A DNA stretch of 64,000 bases. It comes from an uncultured Gemmatimonadales bacterium (GTDB taxonomy: Bacteria > Gemmatimonadota > Gemmatimonadetes > Longimicrobiales > RSA9). The stretch is from NCBI GenBank assembly GCA_963798845.1, contig CAWCUS010000001.1, positions 704,001 to 768,000 of the forward strand, written 5' to 3'. The position numbers were made by a program, and so were the translations under genes. The notes beneath the pieces were generated by a model that had not been told where the DNA came from, searched no databases, and saw only the letters and a list, made by a program, of their open reading frames with translations. Shown in pieces: positions 15,877 to 34,250 of the stretch; within the stretch, counting starts at the first letter, position 1; every line of letters begins with the position of its first letter.

Positions 15877-16060
15877 CCCCTCTGCGAGGGCGAAGCCCGA
15901 CCCCCTCTGCGAGGCCGAATGGCCGAGCCCCTCTGCGAGGCCGAATGGCCGAGCCCCTCTGCGAGGCCGAATGGCCGAGCCCCTCTGCGAGGGCGAAGCC
16001 CGAGCCCCTCTGCGAGGCCGAATGGCCGAGCCCCTCTGCGAGGCCGAATGGCCGAGCCCC
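15877..16060 (+). repeat. Tandem array of 7 palindromic units (25-26 nt), same family as the arrays at 29.8 and 30.4 kb
   Basis: 2x CCCCTCTGCGAGGGCGAAGCCCGA(C/G) and 5x CCCCTCTGCGAGGCCGAATGGCCGAG, starting at the base after the stop codon. Confidence 0.95.
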
Positions 16061-27325: not shown

Positions 27326-27802
27326 ATGGGAGGGACGGTCATCACCATCGAGTTCGATGGCAGGGAGGTATCCGTGACGCCATCCTCGACCTGCCCGGCG
27401 AAGAACGCCCCGGACGCGGCGTGCGCGGTCCACGGGTCGTTCGTGGACTGGGAGGAGAAGCCGAGGAACACGTTCCACTGGGCCGTGATCGTACTGGGGG
27501 ATGCGCCGTTCAAAAAGCAGGTCTTTTCCAACACCCGCGGCTGCGCCACGGGCGGCTACGTGGACACCGGCGAGGACGGAGAAGAGGTGGAGTACGTGGT
27601 GGTGGCGTGGAACGACTACGGCGCCCACAAGGTTCTCGACCCGGTGCTGGTGATCAAGGACCAGCCGCACCCGCCGACCACCTCCGCCTTCTACTCGATC
27701 CTGGACGGGATCCAGAGCCAGGCTCAGACGCTGTCGGAGGACCTCCAGCAGCTGGAAGCGATCGCTCGTCAGATCATTCCCGAGGAGGAGACGGCGTCGT
27801 AG
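27326..27802 (+). CDS. Hypothetical protein (beta-rich domain ending LDPVLVI plus coiled-coil tail)
   Basis: GGAGA RBS, gene-like codon usage; 3' end overlaps the convergent TPR gene. Confidence 0.65.
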   Translation: MGGTVITIEFDGREVSVTPSSTCPAKNAPDAACAVHGSFVDWEEKPRNTFHWAVIVLGDAPFKKQVFSNTRGCATGGYVDTGEDGEEVEYVVVAWNDYGAHKVLDPVLVIKDQPHPPTTSAFYSILDGIQSQAQTLSEDLQQLEAIARQIIPEEETAS

Positions 27803-29711
27803 AGGCGGTCTCGGTTCCGAGGCCTACCAGGCGGAGGAACGCCGGGTCCGTGTGCAGCCCGTCGAACACCCAGTCCCGGGCCACCACGGCGGTGTCGGGA
27901 AGCTGGACCGCCAGCGCCATCCGGAGCAACCGGACTGCGCTGGCGCGGTCGTCCATCAGCAGTGCGACCTGCGCCTCGTCGTAGGCCAGCCCCGGCTGCG
28001 GCTCCGGGCCGCGTGCGCGGATAACGATCGCCCGGGCGCTGTCCGCCAGCCCGGCCCTCGCCGCCACCTTGGCCACCTGCATGATCGCCCACGCGCGGTA
28101 CGGCTGGCGCTGCGACGACGGCACCGTCGCCACCAGCGAGTCGACCAGCGCCCAGGCGCGGTCCACGTCGGGAGCCACCTGGGGGAAGGTCCCGAGCACG
28201 GTGAGGTCCAGCTGGATGAACCCGGAGTTGTCCGGGAACCGTGACCGGCCCTCGGCGACCTGCGTGATGATGGCGTCGTCAGGGCCGAACTGCAGCCCGC
28301 TGTAAGCGGCGGCGAAAAGCGCGTTCTCCTCCAGGTCGAGGAACTCGTCGGCGGCGATTGCGTGGTCGGCCGCGAGCTTCGCTTCCTCGAAGCGGCCCTG
28401 GTCCGTGAGCAGCTCGCTGAGGGCCTGCCACGCCCGGGCACTGCGGTCGTCGCGCTCCACGGCCAGCCGAAGGTCGGCCTCCGCCCTGGAACGGAGCGAG
28501 GCAAGCTCCGACCCCGAGGCACCCGTCGCCTGCGCCATCCGGACGAGCCCCCGCAGCTCCAGCGCCGCGGCGGTGTCCACAGATACGGCCAGCGCTCGCT
28601 CGGCGTGCGCCAGCGCCTGTGTGCACCAGGTCGGCGAGGGTGCCGTGGGGCTGCCCACGATGGAAGCCAGGTCGAGGGCGACGTGGCCACGCAGGAGCGC
28701 GGGCTGGTCCCAGGTGGGGTCCAGGTGCCCGGCCTTCGCCAGGAGCGTGTCGGCGCGCAGCAGCAGCGGCAGCCCGGCCTCCGCGTCCTCGCTGCGCAGG
28801 GCCCAGAAGTCCGTGTACAGGCGCTGGGCACGGCCCCAGAGCGCCCACGCCTCGTCGCTGGTGTTGCCCGCGCGCCGACGGCGGAGATCGAGCTCCCTCC
28901 CGAGGACCTTCCGGAGTGCGCGCGAGACCCCGCCCACGAGGCTGTCCTGGAGCGCGATCCAGGCGCCCACCGGCGCGTCCACGTAATCGCTGTGCAGGTG
29001 GCTCAGGTCGGAGCCGCGGATGAGCTGGAACGTGACCCGGATCTTCCCGTCCGGCCCCGGCGCAACGCTCCCTTCCACGATGCTTCCCGCCCGGAGCTCC
29101 GCCACGACCCTGTCCATGTCCACACGCTCGCCACGGAACCGCTTCACCCCGTTGCGCGAGATCACGTCCAGCGACCGGACCTGCCCGAGCTCGTGGATCA
29201 GCGCTTCGGTCAGCGCGTCGGCCAGGTACGCATATTCGCCGTTCGGCGTGTAGTCGTCGAAGTAGAGCACGGCCACGCGCGCGGGGTCGAGCGACACCGG
29301 GGCGATCACCGCCGCCGCATTCCCGGCGGAGGCCGCTTCCGACGTGCGCGGCCCCCAGACCTGCCAGCCGGTCACGCCCAGCGCCACGCTCAGCAGCACC
29401 ACGAGCAGCACGGCCAGCACGCGCCCACCGACCCCCAGCAGCTCTGAAAACCCCCGCCCCCGGTCCGCTCTAACCCCCTCGGTGGTGACCTGGAGCGCCC
29501 ACGCGAGGACCACGACGATCGGGAATCCCACGGCCGAGACCACCACCAGCAACGGGAGCAGCCATGACGGGAACTCCAGCGCCGACACCAGGATCGTGTC
29601 CACGAACTGGAGCACCGCGTACGCCCCGACCAGGTACAGGATGACCATCCTGGAAACGCGGCGGCGGCGCAGCTCGTCGAGAAATGACCGAAGACCCGAT
29701 CCAATGGGCAT
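27774..29711 (-). CDS. Membrane protein with TolB-N-like domain and TPR repeats
   Basis: ELRRRRV..GFPIVVVLAW TM segment; RVAVLYFDD..LADALTEALIHEL..VISRNGV; helical TPR-like C-terminus. Confidence 0.8.
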   Translation of the reverse strand: MPIGSGLRSFLDELRRRRVSRMVILYLVGAYAVLQFVDTILVSALEFPSWLLPLLVVVSAVGFPIVVVLAWALQVTTEGVRADRGRGFSELLGVGGRVLAVLLVVLLSVALGVTGWQVWGPRTSEAASAGNAAAVIAPVSLDPARVAVLYFDDYTPNGEYAYLADALTEALIHELGQVRSLDVISRNGVKRFRGERVDMDRVVAELRAGSIVEGSVAPGPDGKIRVTFQLIRGSDLSHLHSDYVDAPVGAWIALQDSLVGGVSRALRKVLGRELDLRRRRAGNTSDEAWALWGRAQRLYTDFWALRSEDAEAGLPLLLRADTLLAKAGHLDPTWDQPALLRGHVALDLASIVGSPTAPSPTWCTQALAHAERALAVSVDTAAALELRGLVRMAQATGASGSELASLRSRAEADLRLAVERDDRSARAWQALSELLTDQGRFEEAKLAADHAIAADEFLDLEENALFAAAYSGLQFGPDDAIITQVAEGRSRFPDNSGFIQLDLTVLGTFPQVAPDVDRAWALVDSLVATVPSSQRQPYRAWAIMQVAKVAARAGLADSARAIVIRARGPEPQPGLAYDEAQVALLMDDRASAVRLLRMALAVQLPDTAVVARDWVFDGLHTDPAFLRLVGLGTETASTTPSPPRE

Positions 29712-29797
29712 GGGGAGTCGTCTTCGGGTAGGGGGAAGCCATGGCGCCCGTATGCACTATGTCGGGGGAGGGGGTGCGGGGACAAGGGGGGTCTTGG

Positions 29798-29990
29798 CTC
29801 GGGCTTCGCCCTCGCAGAGGGGCTCGGCCCCTGCGGGGCCTCGCAGAGGGGCTCAGCCCCTGCGGGGGCTTCGCAGAGGGGCTCGGGCTTCGCCCTCGCA
29901 GAGGGGCTCGGCCCCTGCGGGGCCTCGCAGAGGGGCTCGGGCTTCGCCCTCGCAGAGGGGCTCAGCCCCTGCGGGGGCTTCGCAGAGGGG
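29798..29990 (-). repeat. Left array: 7 palindromic units (25-30 nt), reverse orientation
   Basis: Minus-strand units CCCCTCTGCGA-[GGGC GAA GCCC | GGCCCC GCA GGGGCC | AGCCCCC GCA GGGGCT]-GAG. Confidence 0.95.
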
Positions 29991-30372
29991 CGGGGCCGGG
30001 CAGGTGGGGGGGGGAGCGGGTGAAGGCGTTGATCAGGCGGCGCAGGTCCAGCTTCACGTCCTTCAGGAGGCGGAGCGCGCAGAGGAGATCCTCGTTGGCG
30101 ACGGCGCCGACCGCCGTGAGGCTGCGGAGGGCGTGCTCGCATTCCACGGCCGAGCGGTGAGCATAACGATAGAGGCGGACCTTGTCGCCGGTGCTCATCT
30201 CGCCCAGGCCCTCGCCCACGTTGGTCACGACCGACGCCGCCGAGCGTTGCAGGTGATCGTTCGCCGGCTGCCTTGCCACCGCCGCCCGCCCTCCGAGCGA
30301 CTCCGCCATTCGGAGGACCTTTCGCGCCAGCCTGGCCACCCGCGGCTCCCGCGACCGCCCGCTTCTCACCAT
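29962..30372 (-). CDS. Four helix bundle protein (TIGR02436 / 23S rRNA IVP-like family)
   Basis: DHLQRSAASVVTNVGEG..DKVRLYRYAHRSAVEC..LRRLI matches the QL.RA..S...NIAEG..F...A.GS..E pattern. Confidence 0.8.
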   Translation of the reverse strand: MVRSGRSREPRVARLARKVLRMAESLGGRAAVARQPANDHLQRSAASVVTNVGEGLGEMSTGDKVRLYRYAHRSAVECEHALRSLTAVGAVANEDLLCALRLLKDVKLDLRRLINAFTRSPPHLPGPAPLRSPRRG

Positions 30373-30417
30373 GCTCCCACTCTACCCCTCCCCCCCGGCC
30401 ACAGCCATGGCTCGATG

Positions 30418-30642
30418 CGCCTCTGCGAGGCGAAGCCCGAACCCCTCTGCGAGGCGAAGCCCGAGCCCCTCTGCGAGGGCGAAGCCCGAGCCCCTCTGCG
30501 AGGCGAAGCCCGAGCCCCTCTGCGAGGGCAAAGCCCGAGCCCCTCTGCGAGGGCAAAGCCCGAGCCCCTCTGCGAGGGCGAAGCCCGAGCCCCTCTGCGA
30601 GGGCGTAGCCCGAGCCCCTCTGCGAGGGCGAAGCCCGAGCCC
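30418..30642 (+). repeat. Right array: 9 palindromic units (24-25 nt), forward orientation
   Basis: CCCCTCTGCGA-G(G)GC-[GAA|AAA|GTA]-GCCC-GAG tandem units. Confidence 0.95.
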
Positions 30643-30774
30643 ACCCACCCCCCACCCCTTTCCCCGCCCCGCCCCCGCGCCCATCATCGAGGCGCCCCGC
30701 TCGCCATTGACCCGAGATGAACAGTTGCGCCCGCCGGCGGTCCGGGGGGGCGCCGCAGGAGCGACCGAAGGCCG

Positions 30775-32862
30775 ATGCCCGACCAGGATGAACGATACGG
30801 GGCGGTCCGCCCGCCGGAGGAGCTGAATCCTCGGCGGGAGGCGGCGCTCGACTTTCGCCAGCGAGCGCTCGGCGACATGACGCCGGCCGACTATGACGCC
30901 ATCGGCTTCCTCGCCGGGCTCGAGGTCCACCAGCAGCTTCTGACCACTTCGAAGCTCTTCTGCCGATGCCCTGCAGGCCGGCGTTTCGAGCACGCCGATG
31001 CCGAGGTGCTGCGCCACATGCGGCCCACGCTCAGCGAGCTGGGCGAGTACGACGGCACGGCGCTGATGGAGTTCAAGACGCGCAAGGAGATCGTCTACCT
31101 GCTGGAGCGGCGCACCGTCTGCACGTACGAGATGGACGACACGCCGCCGTTCCCGGTGGACGAGGAAGCGGTCCGCATCGCGGTCGAGCTGGCCATGCTC
31201 TTCGACCTGAAGCTGGTCTCGGAGCTCCACGTCATGCGCAAGCAGTATCTGGACGGCTCGATCCCCACGGGTTTCCAGCGCACGGCCATGGTCGGGCTCG
31301 GCGGCAGCGTCCCGTTCCGGGTCCCCGAGCTCGGCGTGGACCGGCCGCTCACCATCCGGCAGCTCTCGCTGGAGGAGGACTCCTGCCGCGAGGTCAGCGA
31401 CGTGGGCCACCGCATCGTGTTCCGCGCCGACCGCCTGGGCGTCCCCCTCACCGAGGTGGTCACGGAGCCCGAGCTGCGCACGCCCTGGGAGCTTCAGGCC
31501 GCAGGCCGCCTCATCGCAAGCGCCGCCCGTGCCACCGGCCACGTCCGCCGCGGCCCCGGCGCCGCCCGTCAGGACGTGAACGTCTCGGTCGCCGGCGGCA
31601 GGCGGGTGGAGATCAAGGGCGTGCCGCGCCACCGCGGGCTCCCGCTCCTCGTCCACATCGAGGCATTCCGGCAGCTCGCCCTGCTGCGCGTGCAGGCCGA
31701 GCTGGAGCGACGCGGCGTCACCACCGCCCTGCTCCCGCTGCCCGGCGACGATGCGCCGGCGTGGGAATCGTCGACGCTGGTGGCGGACGCGTCCGGCACC
31801 CTCGCCCGCACCGGCCACACCCCGCTGCGCAGTGCGCTGGACCGGGGCGAGACCGCCGTGGCCGTGCGGCTCCCGGGCTTCGCCGGACTGCTCGACCAGC
31901 CGACGCAGACGGGCATCCCCTTCGGTCGTGAGCTGGCGGAGCGGGTGCAGGTCATCGCGTGCCCGGTCCACCGTCCGTTCATGGCTTGGAACGGCAGTGC
32001 CGTCCGGGGTGGACTGGAGCGGGCGACGACGCTGTCGCACGCCCATTGGAGGGAGGTGGAGCGCGCGCTCGGCGCGGACACCGGTGACGCCATCGTCGTG
32101 GTCTGGGCGCCGGAGGCCGACGCGGACACCGCGGCGAGAGAGATCCTGATCCGCGCGCGCGAGGCGCTGGCGGGCGTCCCCGCCGAGACGCGCCAGGCCC
32201 GCGCCGACGGCACCACCGGCTTCGAGCGGATCCTCCCCGGCCCCGACCGAATGTACCCTGACACGGACACGCCGCCGCTCCCGATCTCCGACGTGCTGGT
32301 GGCTGAGGTCGTCGCCGAACTGCCCGAGACGCCGTGGGCACGCGCGGACCGCTACGTCGGCCTGGGGCTCGACCCCGGTGCGGCGCAGCGCCTCTCCGTG
32401 GCACCCTGGGCCGACCTGTTCGACGACGTCCGGCCCGCAGCCGGCGACACGGCCCGGACCGTGGCCCGGGCGCTCCAGCACCGCCTCCCTTTCCACTCCC
32501 GAAGACACGCCGCGCCGCCCCCGTCCGCCGACCGCCTCGCCACCGTGGTCCGAGCGCTCGAGTCCGGGGTGCTGCTCCCCGGCGCCATTGAGCCGGCGCT
32601 GGACGCGCTCGTGCTGGAGCCGGAGACGAGGGCCGGAGCGGTCGTCGCCCGCTTCCGCGCGTCGCCCGATGCGAGGAAGGCCGTGGCGTCGCGGATCGAG
32701 GAAGCGGCCGCTCGGGCGCGCAACGAGGGCCCGCCCGATCCCGAGGCGGCGCTGCGCCGCGCCATGGGCGAGGTCATGCGCGGAGTCCGGGGGCGGGTGG
32801 ACGCCGCGGACGTGCGCCGACGCGTCGTCGCCGCGCTCGGATTCGAAGTGGAGGCGGCGTGA
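30775..32862 (+). CDS. gatE: Glu-tRNA(Gln) amidotransferase subunit E (archaeal type)
   Basis: GLEVHQQL..KLFCRC, LRPTLSELGEYD-like, MRKQYLDGSIPTGFQRT, LEEDSCR, RLGVPLTE, RQDVNVSV..RVEIKGV, GVPAETR, LPGPDRMYPDTD. Confidence 0.9.
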   Translation: MPDQDERYGAVRPPEELNPRREAALDFRQRALGDMTPADYDAIGFLAGLEVHQQLLTTSKLFCRCPAGRRFEHADAEVLRHMRPTLSELGEYDGTALMEFKTRKEIVYLLERRTVCTYEMDDTPPFPVDEEAVRIAVELAMLFDLKLVSELHVMRKQYLDGSIPTGFQRTAMVGLGGSVPFRVPELGVDRPLTIRQLSLEEDSCREVSDVGHRIVFRADRLGVPLTEVVTEPELRTPWELQAAGRLIASAARATGHVRRGPGAARQDVNVSVAGGRRVEIKGVPRHRGLPLLVHIEAFRQLALLRVQAELERRGVTTALLPLPGDDAPAWESSTLVADASGTLARTGHTPLRSALDRGETAVAVRLPGFAGLLDQPTQTGIPFGRELAERVQVIACPVHRPFMAWNGSAVRGGLERATTLSHAHWREVERALGADTGDAIVVVWAPEADADTAAREILIRAREALAGVPAETRQARADGTTGFERILPGPDRMYPDTDTPPLPISDVLVAEVVAELPETPWARADRYVGLGLDPGAAQRLSVAPWADLFDDVRPAAGDTARTVARALQHRLPFHSRRHAAPPPSADRLATVVRALESGVLLPGAIEPALDALVLEPETRAGAVVARFRASPDARKAVASRIEEAAARARNEGPPDPEAALRRAMGEVMRGVRGRVDAADVRRRVVAALGFEVEAA

Positions 32863-34250
32863 TGAGCGCGACGGAGACCGGCGGCTATCGCGGACCGGCC
32901 TGGGCGGCCATGCAGCGCTTCGGCATCACCGTGTGGTGCGAAGTGCGGGCGCGCACCACGCGCGGCGAGTTCATCGGACTGGTGCTGCCGCGCTCCGAGA
33001 CCAGCGACGACCTCCACCTCGTCCTGAAGCTCGGCTCCGGCTACAACGTCGGCCTCCGCCACGACACGATCCTCGAGCTGGAGAAGCTCGGGTATCGCGA
33101 GGCCCACTACAGGATCCCCGAGAAAGCCTTCCCCGTCACGCCCGACCTCCCGCGCGTCAAGCTGCTCGGCACGGGCGGCACCATCGCATCCCGGCTCGAC
33201 TACCGCACGGGCGCCGTCATACCCGCGTTCACCCCCGGCGAGCTGTACGGCTCGGTCCCGGAGCTGGCCGACGTGTGCAATCTGGAGACGGAGAAGCTGT
33301 TCGGCGTCTTCAGCGAGAACATGGGGCCCGAGCAGTACATGGTGCTGGCCGAGAAGATCGGCGAGGCCATCCGCGACGGCTACGACGGCGTGATCGTGGG
33401 TCATGGCACGGATACCATGCACCACACGGCCGCGGTCCTCAGCTTCATGGTCCAGGACCCGCCCGTCCCGGTGATCCTCGTGGGCAGCCAGCGCTCCTCC
33501 GACCGCCCGTCCTCCGACGCGGCCCGCAACCTCATCAACGCCGCATGGGCCGCCGGCCACGGGCCCATCGCCGAGGTCATGGTGTGCATGTTCGGCCCCA
33601 CCTCCGACGTGTACAACCTGCTCCACCGCGGCACGCGCGTGCGGAAGATGCACAGCTCCGTGCGAAGCACGTTCCGCACCCTGGGCGACATCCCGCTCGC
33701 CATGGTGGAGCGCGGCGCGCTCACCCCGCTCAAGGACGACTGGAAGCCCCGCCGCGACGATCGCGACGTCACCATCCGGCCCGCGTTCGACCCCCGGGTC
33801 ACCCTCGTCTACTACTATCCGGGGATGCAGCCGGACGTGATCGACGCGCTGGTGGGGTGCGGCTACCGCGGCATCGTGCTGGCCGGCACCGGCCTCGGCC
33901 ACGTCAACCGTCTCATCTATCCGGCGCTGGAGCGGGCGAGGGACGCGGGCGTGCAGGTCTACATGACGCTCCAGACGTTCTGGGGCTTCGTTCAGATGCA
34001 CGTCTACGAGACCGGCCGCGAGATCCTGGAGCTGGGCGTGGTGCCGCTCGCCAACATGCTGCCCGAAGTGGCCTACGTGAAGCTCGGCTGGGCGCTGGGC
34101 CTCCATCCCGATGACCCCGCCGCCGCGCGGGCCCTCATGACCGCCACGCTCGCCGGCGAGATGACCGAGCGCGAGCCGCACGACGGCTACCTCATCCTCC
34201 AGGGTGGCGTCCCGGAGGTTCAGGCGGCGCTCTCCGGCTTGTGGAGATGA
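32862..34250 (+). CDS. gatD: Glu-tRNA(Gln) amidotransferase subunit D (archaeal type, asparaginase-like)
   Basis: N-terminal VLKLGSGYNVGL domain; TGGTIASRLDYRTGAV, HGTDTM, GSQRSSDRPSSD, RGTRVRKMHSS, GTGLGHV, MLPEVAYVKL; TGATG overlap with gatE. Confidence 0.92.
   Translation: MSATETGGYRGPAWAAMQRFGITVWCEVRARTTRGEFIGLVLPRSETSDDLHLVLKLGSGYNVGLRHDTILELEKLGYREAHYRIPEKAFPVTPDLPRVKLLGTGGTIASRLDYRTGAVIPAFTPGELYGSVPELADVCNLETEKLFGVFSENMGPEQYMVLAEKIGEAIRDGYDGVIVGHGTDTMHHTAAVLSFMVQDPPVPVILVGSQRSSDRPSSDAARNLINAAWAAGHGPIAEVMVCMFGPTSDVYNLLHRGTRVRKMHSSVRSTFRTLGDIPLAMVERGALTPLKDDWKPRRDDRDVTIRPAFDPRVTLVYYYPGMQPDVIDALVGCGYRGIVLAGTGLGHVNRLIYPALERARDAGVQVYMTLQTFWGFVQMHVYETGREILELGVVPLANMLPEVAYVKLGWALGLHPDDPAAARALMTATLAGEMTEREPHDGYLILQGGVPEVQAALSGLWR

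Follow-up and report, generated by a model that had tools for sequence, protein, structure and literature searches.

To our knowledge, the proteins of the PF05635/TIGR02436 (IVP) family, which are four-helix bundles (4HB), are widespread and represented by solved structures, with no function assigned to them, and we know of no explanation to date for the movement of ORF-bearing IVSs. The 23S rRNA IVSs of Coxiella and Leptospira (S23p/IVP) are portrayed in passages of PMC4990558 as patchily distributed elements in which a gene for a protein of this family and fold, with tandem repeats beside it, is enclosed by complementary ends. Furthermore, in CPR bacteria IVP ORFs occur dispersed among several insertion sites in rRNA, as stated in part of a preprint (bioRxiv 10.1101/2024.02.27.582315). 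A comparable layout is found in the REPtrons, which according to sections of PMC3733652 consist of a small gene (RAYT/TnpA-REP) between inverted REPs or TIRs, that is, extragenic hairpins that occur genome-wide. The same fold also recurs in the basic DGR protein Avd (PDB 4DWL, 8UBE; excerpts of PMC10053308).

Here, we describe a cassette of about 860 nt in the genome of an uncultured Gemmatimonadales bacterium, located in a stretch of 64,000 nt (the window, to which all coordinates without a contig refer). We call the genome containing the window the focal genome (G000) and compare it with that of a congener, a sister species in the same genus (G001). The layout of the cassette is closest to that of an IVS or a REPtron, but by the defining features of these systems it is not an rRNA IVS, a REPtron, a DGR or an IS. 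To the best of our searches in the main texts of the open-access literature, no description of this class of cassettes was found.

Layout and boundaries of the cassette

The only ORF between the two arms is the 4HB gene (Table 1). A sequence-only reading of the window had described a lone 136-aa gene between a seven-unit reverse and a nine-unit forward array; the ORF and the repeat cores were found as claimed. The large stem that it had envisaged is likewise plausible: the arms are complementary in 74 inverted pairs, with up to 50 nt at 92%, and both strands of the 869-nt segment, whether RNA or DNA, fold with 151-166 long-range pairs. A closing stem from complementary ends, a feature of IVSs, is thus present. 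The innermost left repeat unit, already recognized as the source of the TGA, encodes the last ten codons of the gene as well. There is no transposase in cis, and neither a transposase nor a reverse transcriptase was found in the four neighbouring proteins scanned, in agreement with the earlier reading. Rfam searches of the cassette yielded no family at gathering score, with sub-threshold miRNA and CRISPR matches only, and a strict scan of the locus for sigma-70 promoters and terminators returned 0 sites.

Table 1. Features of the 4HB cassette, its neighbours and a related array (window coordinates)
Feature	Position	Strand	Basis or details
4HB gene, 136 aa, PF05635/TIGR02436	29962..30372	-	ORF and profile searches
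Downstream (left) arm	29796..29991	-	7 cores in tandem, hairpin units of 25-30 nt
Upstream (right) arm	30418..30642	+	9 cores in tandem, units of 24-25 nt; orientation opposite to that of the left array
Predicted promoter of the 4HB gene	30379..30411	-	ends 6 nt before the ATG; GCCATGG-ctg-TGGCCGG ... TAGAGT
Putative host promoter of the TPR-like gene	29756..29785	-	-35-like TTGTCC, -10-like CATAGT; by eye
Putative host promoter of gatE	30659..30687	+	TTTCCC-17-CATCAT; by eye
Left neighbour, TPR-like membrane protein	27774..29711	-	Host gene; weak TPR matches only
Right neighbour, gatE	30775..32862	+	Host gene; amidotransferase subunit of archaeal type; divergent from the cassette
Gene-less array of the same repeat family	15877..16042	+	7 cores

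On its left, the cassette is bounded by the putative promoter of the TPR-like gene and on its right by that of gatE; judged by eye, it is positioned between the -35 boxes of the two. Both hexamers of the TPR-gene promoter are retained in the corresponding empty site of the congener, and the putative gatE promoter is retained there and at several other gatE loci. The G-rich left and C-rich right outer flanks had been taken to extend the asymmetry of the arrays. This view had to be given up, as they are mostly host sequence, with the spacers of the putative host promoters inside both of them, and conservation of the C-rich right one extends to the empty site. Neither neighbouring gene reads across the cassette and, since it is placed between divergent promoters, no host transcript should hold both arms. 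The upstream arm is also outside the predicted transcript of the 4HB gene itself.

Compared with the 23S rRNA IVSs, the cassette is not located in an rRNA gene, but between the TPR-like gene and gatE with their divergent host promoters; its arms measure about 200 nt and are built of 25-30-nt hairpin units, whereas the IVS has a 28-bp stem and heptamers (as given in part of PMC4990558); and it has a predicted promoter of its own inside the arms. In contrast to REPtrons, it encodes no HUH/Y1 nuclease, the three PF01797 matches of the focal genome being elsewhere, no GTAG or CGTC tag was seen, and no cognate repeat is tied to the protein lineage. The absence of a transposase in cis distinguishes it from insertion sequences and MITEs.

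The gatE gene lies together with gatD (30775-34250, +), both being archaeal-type genes in a bacterium and NCBIfam equivalogs above cut-off; gatE exceeds the cut-off in 9 of the 61 family genomes searched.

The 4HB protein

The identity proposed from the sequence alone, a TIGR02436 four-helix bundle, was confirmed. The protein belongs to the IVP family, with scores of 39.9 bits for PF05635 (cut-off 33.8) and 39.2 bits for TIGR02436 (cut-off 24), and its structural model (pLDDT 91.9; helices 11-29, 32-57, 61-87 and 93-119) matches the folds of 2GSC (rmsd 1.2 Å), 2RLD and Avd (4DWL). According to passages of PMC4990558, 2GSC is a homopentamer. Like Avd, the protein is basic (25 R+K vs 12 D+E), and the two folds agree with a TM score of 0.71 by query and an rmsd of 1.6 Å; however, their sequence identity is just 13-15%, and no reverse transcriptase was found among the neighbours scanned. 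There was no match to PF01797 (Y1/HUH transposase), and profile and structure searches found no catalytic domain.

Within the family tree the protein is divergent, being placed on a long branch. It carries a His where the family has a nearly invariant Gln and is without the N-terminal motif of the family; on these two grounds, the copy at the gatE site may be decaying. In metagenomes, no close homolog was confirmed among 595 pattern matches.

Empty sites and turnover

The congener has an empty site between the TPR-like gene and gatE, as the sequence-only reading had anticipated for a close relative: its matches to the window stop at 29743 and resume at 30628, and the interval measures 124 nt, as opposed to 885 nt in the focal genome. 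The flanks of the empty site are 71-79% identical to the window and surround about 90 nt of unrelated filler, with no definable target duplication; from the sequences, the difference may represent a gain in the focal genome or a loss in the congener, both of which fit. At eight other gatE loci, no 4HB motif was found within 1.4 kb upstream. Three DNA sequencing runs from one study gave only short contigs at low depth, with no joint across the cassette, a result that speaks neither for nor against its presence.

A second cassette of the focal genome, at metH, is also absent from the congener, where a short hairpin stub is found. The gap 3' of metH harbours 4HB genes recurrently, and their arms differ from genome to genome (L001, L010, L011, L012, L014, L020, L023 and L116). 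On the protein tree, the metH-site proteins require 6 changes at weak support, and the tree leaves their monophyly unsettled. At uvrB, the focal genome and the congener have sister 4HB proteins (support 100/99) with different arms. Likewise, the other two 4HB genes of the focal genome have arms of other sequence than those at the gatE site, and the single 4HB gene of the congener has arms unrelated to this array family. Copy numbers range from 0 to 17 4HB genes per family genome.

At four loci, long direct repeats occur on both sides of the 4HB gene (L027, L036, L096 and L110; scores 147, 78, 58.5 and 195.5), and the direct repeat of L027 is itself palindromic, as if integrated by a single crossover.

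Inverted arms across 4HB loci

As a measure of the inverted layout, the 330 nt upstream of a gene were scored against the reverse complement of the 330 nt downstream, with scores of at least 18 counted as positive. The gatE-site 4HB gene reaches 95.5, the top score of the 3466 called genes of the focal genome. All three 4HB genes of this genome are positive, as are 22/27 loci of relatives in a first family set (which left out one locus without downstream DNA and one without the motif), 18/24 in a second family set (30 loci minus one duplicate, two short ones and three without an anchor) and 37/67 in a cross-phylum set (13 of 80 loci not scored). By comparison, positives are rare among controls: 0/28 for ssb and 0/26 for glyoxalase (30 loci each), 0.27% of 1500 random windows and 15 of the 3466 called genes. 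Related 4HB loci are not independent of each other, yet the gap to the controls remains large, and it is thus not the case that 4HB genes are flanked by such arms no more often than random genes. Together with the empty site in the congener, this supports the earlier proposal of a cassette. RAYT loci are positive in 12 of 16 cases.

The sequence of the arms is locus-specific, with hexamer or heptamer runs at some loci and hairpin repeats at others. Given that they vary by locus, even between the sister proteins at uvrB, it is complementarity rather than sequence that is kept. A general rule of arm polarity, with the G-rich arm first, was considered and dropped, as this order is common in the family and mixed across phyla.

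All 26 other classifiable cassettes have at least one host gene reading in, which fits either a role at the RNA level or a bias towards gene 3' ends. The gatE-site cassette is the only classifiable one without a neighbour reading in, a situation that it shares with 261 of 845 stand-alone genes of the focal genome.

The hairpin-repeat family of the focal genome

The repeats at the gatE site belong to a family that forms 30 arrays with at least three units each in the focal genome, nearly all between called genes. Two of these arrays are the arms of the cassette and 28 are away from any 4HB gene; the array at 15877..16042 has one linker variant in common with the arms. Five array pairs are inverted, all in the same orientation. 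Tabulated in this way, inverted arrays do enclose the 4HB gene, as proposed, but four pairs are gene-less; these have arms 69-163 nt apart and are located between co-directional genes. No 4HB remnants were found in them, and family searches gave only the 3 4HB genes genome-wide. Of the five, only the gene-bearing pair has a linker variant common to both arms, while its overall arm similarity is just the median among array pairs.

GA-stem-loop-stem-GA describes 190 of the 216 linkers, with 12 different stems and loops that are mostly GAA (64) or GCA (46). GNA triloops are DNA-type mini-hairpins. By nearest-neighbour DNA rules, single repeat units fold no better than shuffles, and neither a GTAG nor a CGTC tag was seen in them. 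No RAYT-like (3 genes) or GIY-YIG (1 match) partner was found near the arrays in the focal genome. Five relatives have 0-4 copies each of the exact core pattern, which is the control level, and the congener retains a degenerate array of the family. An exact search of the GTDB collection, which may omit near-identical genomes, gave no match to the tandem two-unit pattern; this suggests that the expansion of the arrays is recent, like the cassette.

A second hairpin family flanks typA on both sides (C1:829194-831018) and forms the arms at the metH site (C6:1185657). In addition, two GxxExxY-type genes have their own repeats around them as inverted arms (C6:1344928-1345342 and C6:1353234-1353471), the former confirmed as PF13366.

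A promoter-like motif shared with RAYT and ssDNA-related genes

Upstream of 4HB genes, a promoter-like motif was first noticed by eye, and it also precedes the three RAYT-like genes of the focal genome. In its combined form, it reads GCyATGG-n3-tGCCCCG-n10-yAnnnT; in the gatE-site cassette, it starts 39 nt before the ATG, inside the arms. A first model, built with 14 4HB sites that all lie outside the focal genome, gave top ranks in the focal genome to two ssb genes, 4HB, RAYT and a pilin. As it assigned a score of at least 12 to no more than 1 of the 26 4HB promoters held out, a further model was built exclusively from 10 RAYT promoters of relatives. By this RAYT-only model, the gatE-site 4HB gene scores 14.5 (top 0.43%), a value reached by none of 1000 column-shuffled models. 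Scores of at least 12 were obtained for 13/28 and 6/24 other 4HB loci (total 19/52), compared with 26 of 3468 genes of the focal genome; for comM, the count was 17/26.

A combined model of 34 sites, none from the focal genome, scores at least 14 for 22 of its genes. All three of its 4HB genes are among them, as are its three RAYT-like genes, two ssb (C6:209005 and C6:998548), comM (C1:185621), pilB (C6:297609), the pilin heading the pil operon (C2:357768), yraN, recN (C5:163249), recQ, recX, an integrase, parts of toxin-antitoxin systems, miaB (upstream of comEC) and aroK. Among relatives, it finds comM at 22 of 26 loci (3 of 29 having been left out) and glyoxalase at 0 of 19. We regard the gene set as a candidate competence or ssDNA regulon of this Gemmatimonadota family, where the word 'competence' is chosen for the gene content, because the motif is mostly absent from dprA (1/28) and recA (3/29) of relatives and was found at 3/19 family ssb loci with the first model. 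The motif is lineage-restricted, occurring at 3/7 Longimicrobiales loci (one of them a training site) and 0/60 in other taxa, and the arms are cross-phylum. In the open-access literature, we found no description linking such a promoter to RAYTs or to Gemmatimonadota.

The ATG of the gatE-site 4HB gene, the RAYTs, the pilin, recX and the integrase is 38-39 nt from the start of the motif, which points to leaderless or nearly leaderless mRNAs and supports the start of the 136-aa protein. In 17 of the 21 cassettes having the motif, it is found inside the arms, so that the RNA of the 4HB gene itself should be without the upstream arm.

The closest described promoters are those of mycobacterial PafBC, given as tGTCgg(N10)tA(N3)T in part of PMC8635444. 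They likewise have a GC-rich element 10 nt upstream of a -10 hexamer; in the present motif, this geometry is represented by columns 12-17, ten free columns and yAnnnT. The focal genome also has a tandem pafB/pafC-like WYL-WCX pair with a PafC-type HTH (L220:901-3058; C6:1350310-1352459), in this case outside Actinobacteria, and the genes downstream of the motif are ssDNA-related. On the other hand, the bases differ, there is an extra upstream GCyATGG block, and recA is mostly without the motif. Searches detected the PafC HTH in 17 of the 24 family genomes and in 1 of the 16 others, but not in G018, G022 and G024, all of which have strong comM sites. A TfoX_N protein is present, but nothing links it to the motif.

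Long RAYT-like proteins of about 300 aa (L037, L038, L039 and the family relatives L155-L168) share the promoter and have short terminal inverted repeats; the two scanned showed weak C-terminal HTH matches.

Possible modes of action

The layout, the empty site, the locus-specific arms and the shared promoter-like motif are established; beyond the promoter match, we infer every step of the mechanism from them. The 4HB unit is probably a selfish cassette without a transposase, activated in the presence of ssDNA, and as our leading, though tentative, reading, we propose that the gatE-site cassette works on ssDNA. This is favoured by the lack of read-through from either neighbour, by an RNA of the 4HB gene without the upstream arm and by a promoter in common with ssDNA-related genes and RAYTs. 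The 4HB gene would be switched on together with the host genes for DNA uptake and ssDNA handling. In ssDNA, the arms would pair up as a single long stem, with the gene looped out and the host flanks brought together, and the basic, Avd-like protein would bind this stem. Having no transposase of its own, it would probably help the unit to be inserted or retained via host recombination or a hairpin enzyme acting in trans. The arms would be drawn from locally available repeats, here the hairpin repeats of the genome itself, and change at a higher rate than the gene; since they need only be complementary, their sequence would be free to vary. What is new is a promoter-like motif inside the arms that is common to 4HB, RAYT, comM and ssDNA genes. 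It indicates the conditions to study, DNA uptake or ssDNA stress, and the object, long ssDNA stems as opposed to one particular repeat, and the gatE-site locus is useful in this respect because its arms are uncoupled from host read-through.

Possible, albeit somewhat unlikely, is an action on RNA in the manner of an IVS, which had been among the earlier proposals and is compatible with one on ssDNA. The arms would pair in a read-through transcript, RNase III would cut or insulate the insert so that it is harmless to the operon, the 4HB protein would act on that RNA, and the gatE-site copy would be atypical or decaying. Much in the relatives agrees with this: host genes read into all other classifiable cassettes, the four gene-less array pairs are all between co-directional genes, and the family of the protein and the terminal stem are those of the Coxiella 23S IVS, which according to passages of PMC4990558 is cut out by RNase III. 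In addition, the structural relative Avd is part of an RNA-protein complex, to judge by PDB titles. At the gatE site, however, the fit is poor, since the neighbours do not read across and the predicted promoter is inside the arms; with divergent neighbours and a transcript starting in this position, no predicted RNA has both arms. Furthermore, a cut mRNA is split, whereas rRNA stays functional in pieces, and the promoter shared with ssDNA genes is left unexplained.

Improbable in our view is a REPtron-like nursery, in which the 4HB protein would recognize the repeat and seed or amplify the arrays genome-wide. The layout and the promoter class are those of RAYT genes, no RAYT-like or GIY-YIG gene near the arrays offers itself as an alternative amplifier, the gene-bearing pair is alone in sharing a linker variant between its arms, and the expansion of the arrays appears as recent as the cassette. 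Yet the protein has no detected catalytic domain, 28 of the 30 arrays are without a 4HB gene nearby, and the similarity of the enclosing arms is only the median for array pairs. The arms also differ among the three 4HB genes of the focal genome and between sister proteins at one site, and the congener has a degenerate array of the family, while its 4HB gene is accompanied by unrelated arms. The notion that the protein recognizes and propagates its flanking repeats as RAYTs do REPs is therefore not supported, and membership in the REPtrons fails on both the catalytic domain and repeat specificity.

We also give little credence to a domesticated stress gene that serves the host response to ssDNA or DNA damage, with functionless arms. 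In this view, small genes would insert preferentially into palindromic elements already resident in the genome, which would account for the repeats to either side. The regulon-like promoter would suit such a role, the four gene-less inverted pairs would be ready targets, and GxxExxY genes and typA are also found in inverted repeats of the focal genome. This is at odds with the variable copy number of 4HB genes, with the changes required on the weakly supported tree of metH-site proteins, with a complementarity that persists while the arm sequence changes, and with controls almost free of arms.

A broader extension of the ssDNA reading is speculative and rather doubtful: 4HB genes would be the core of widespread transposase-free mobile cassettes that are spread by natural transformation and plugged into DNA-uptake promoters. 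Their arms would fold incoming strands, the cargo would loop out and the flanks would recombine into empty sites, with the rRNA IVSs as a special case that landed in rRNA.

A 4HB gene captured by an insertion sequence

One route of 4HB movement is documented, namely capture inside a DDE insertion sequence in a Chlamydiae MAG (CAWCVY01, L341-L396). Among the matches listed, there are 14 near-identical copies of this element, which combines a DDE transposase with a 4HB passenger. The 4HB gene is found inside the terminal repeats together with its hexamer arms, and the element is accompanied by 3-bp duplications. One copy (L362) measures 521 nt and is too short for the transposase.
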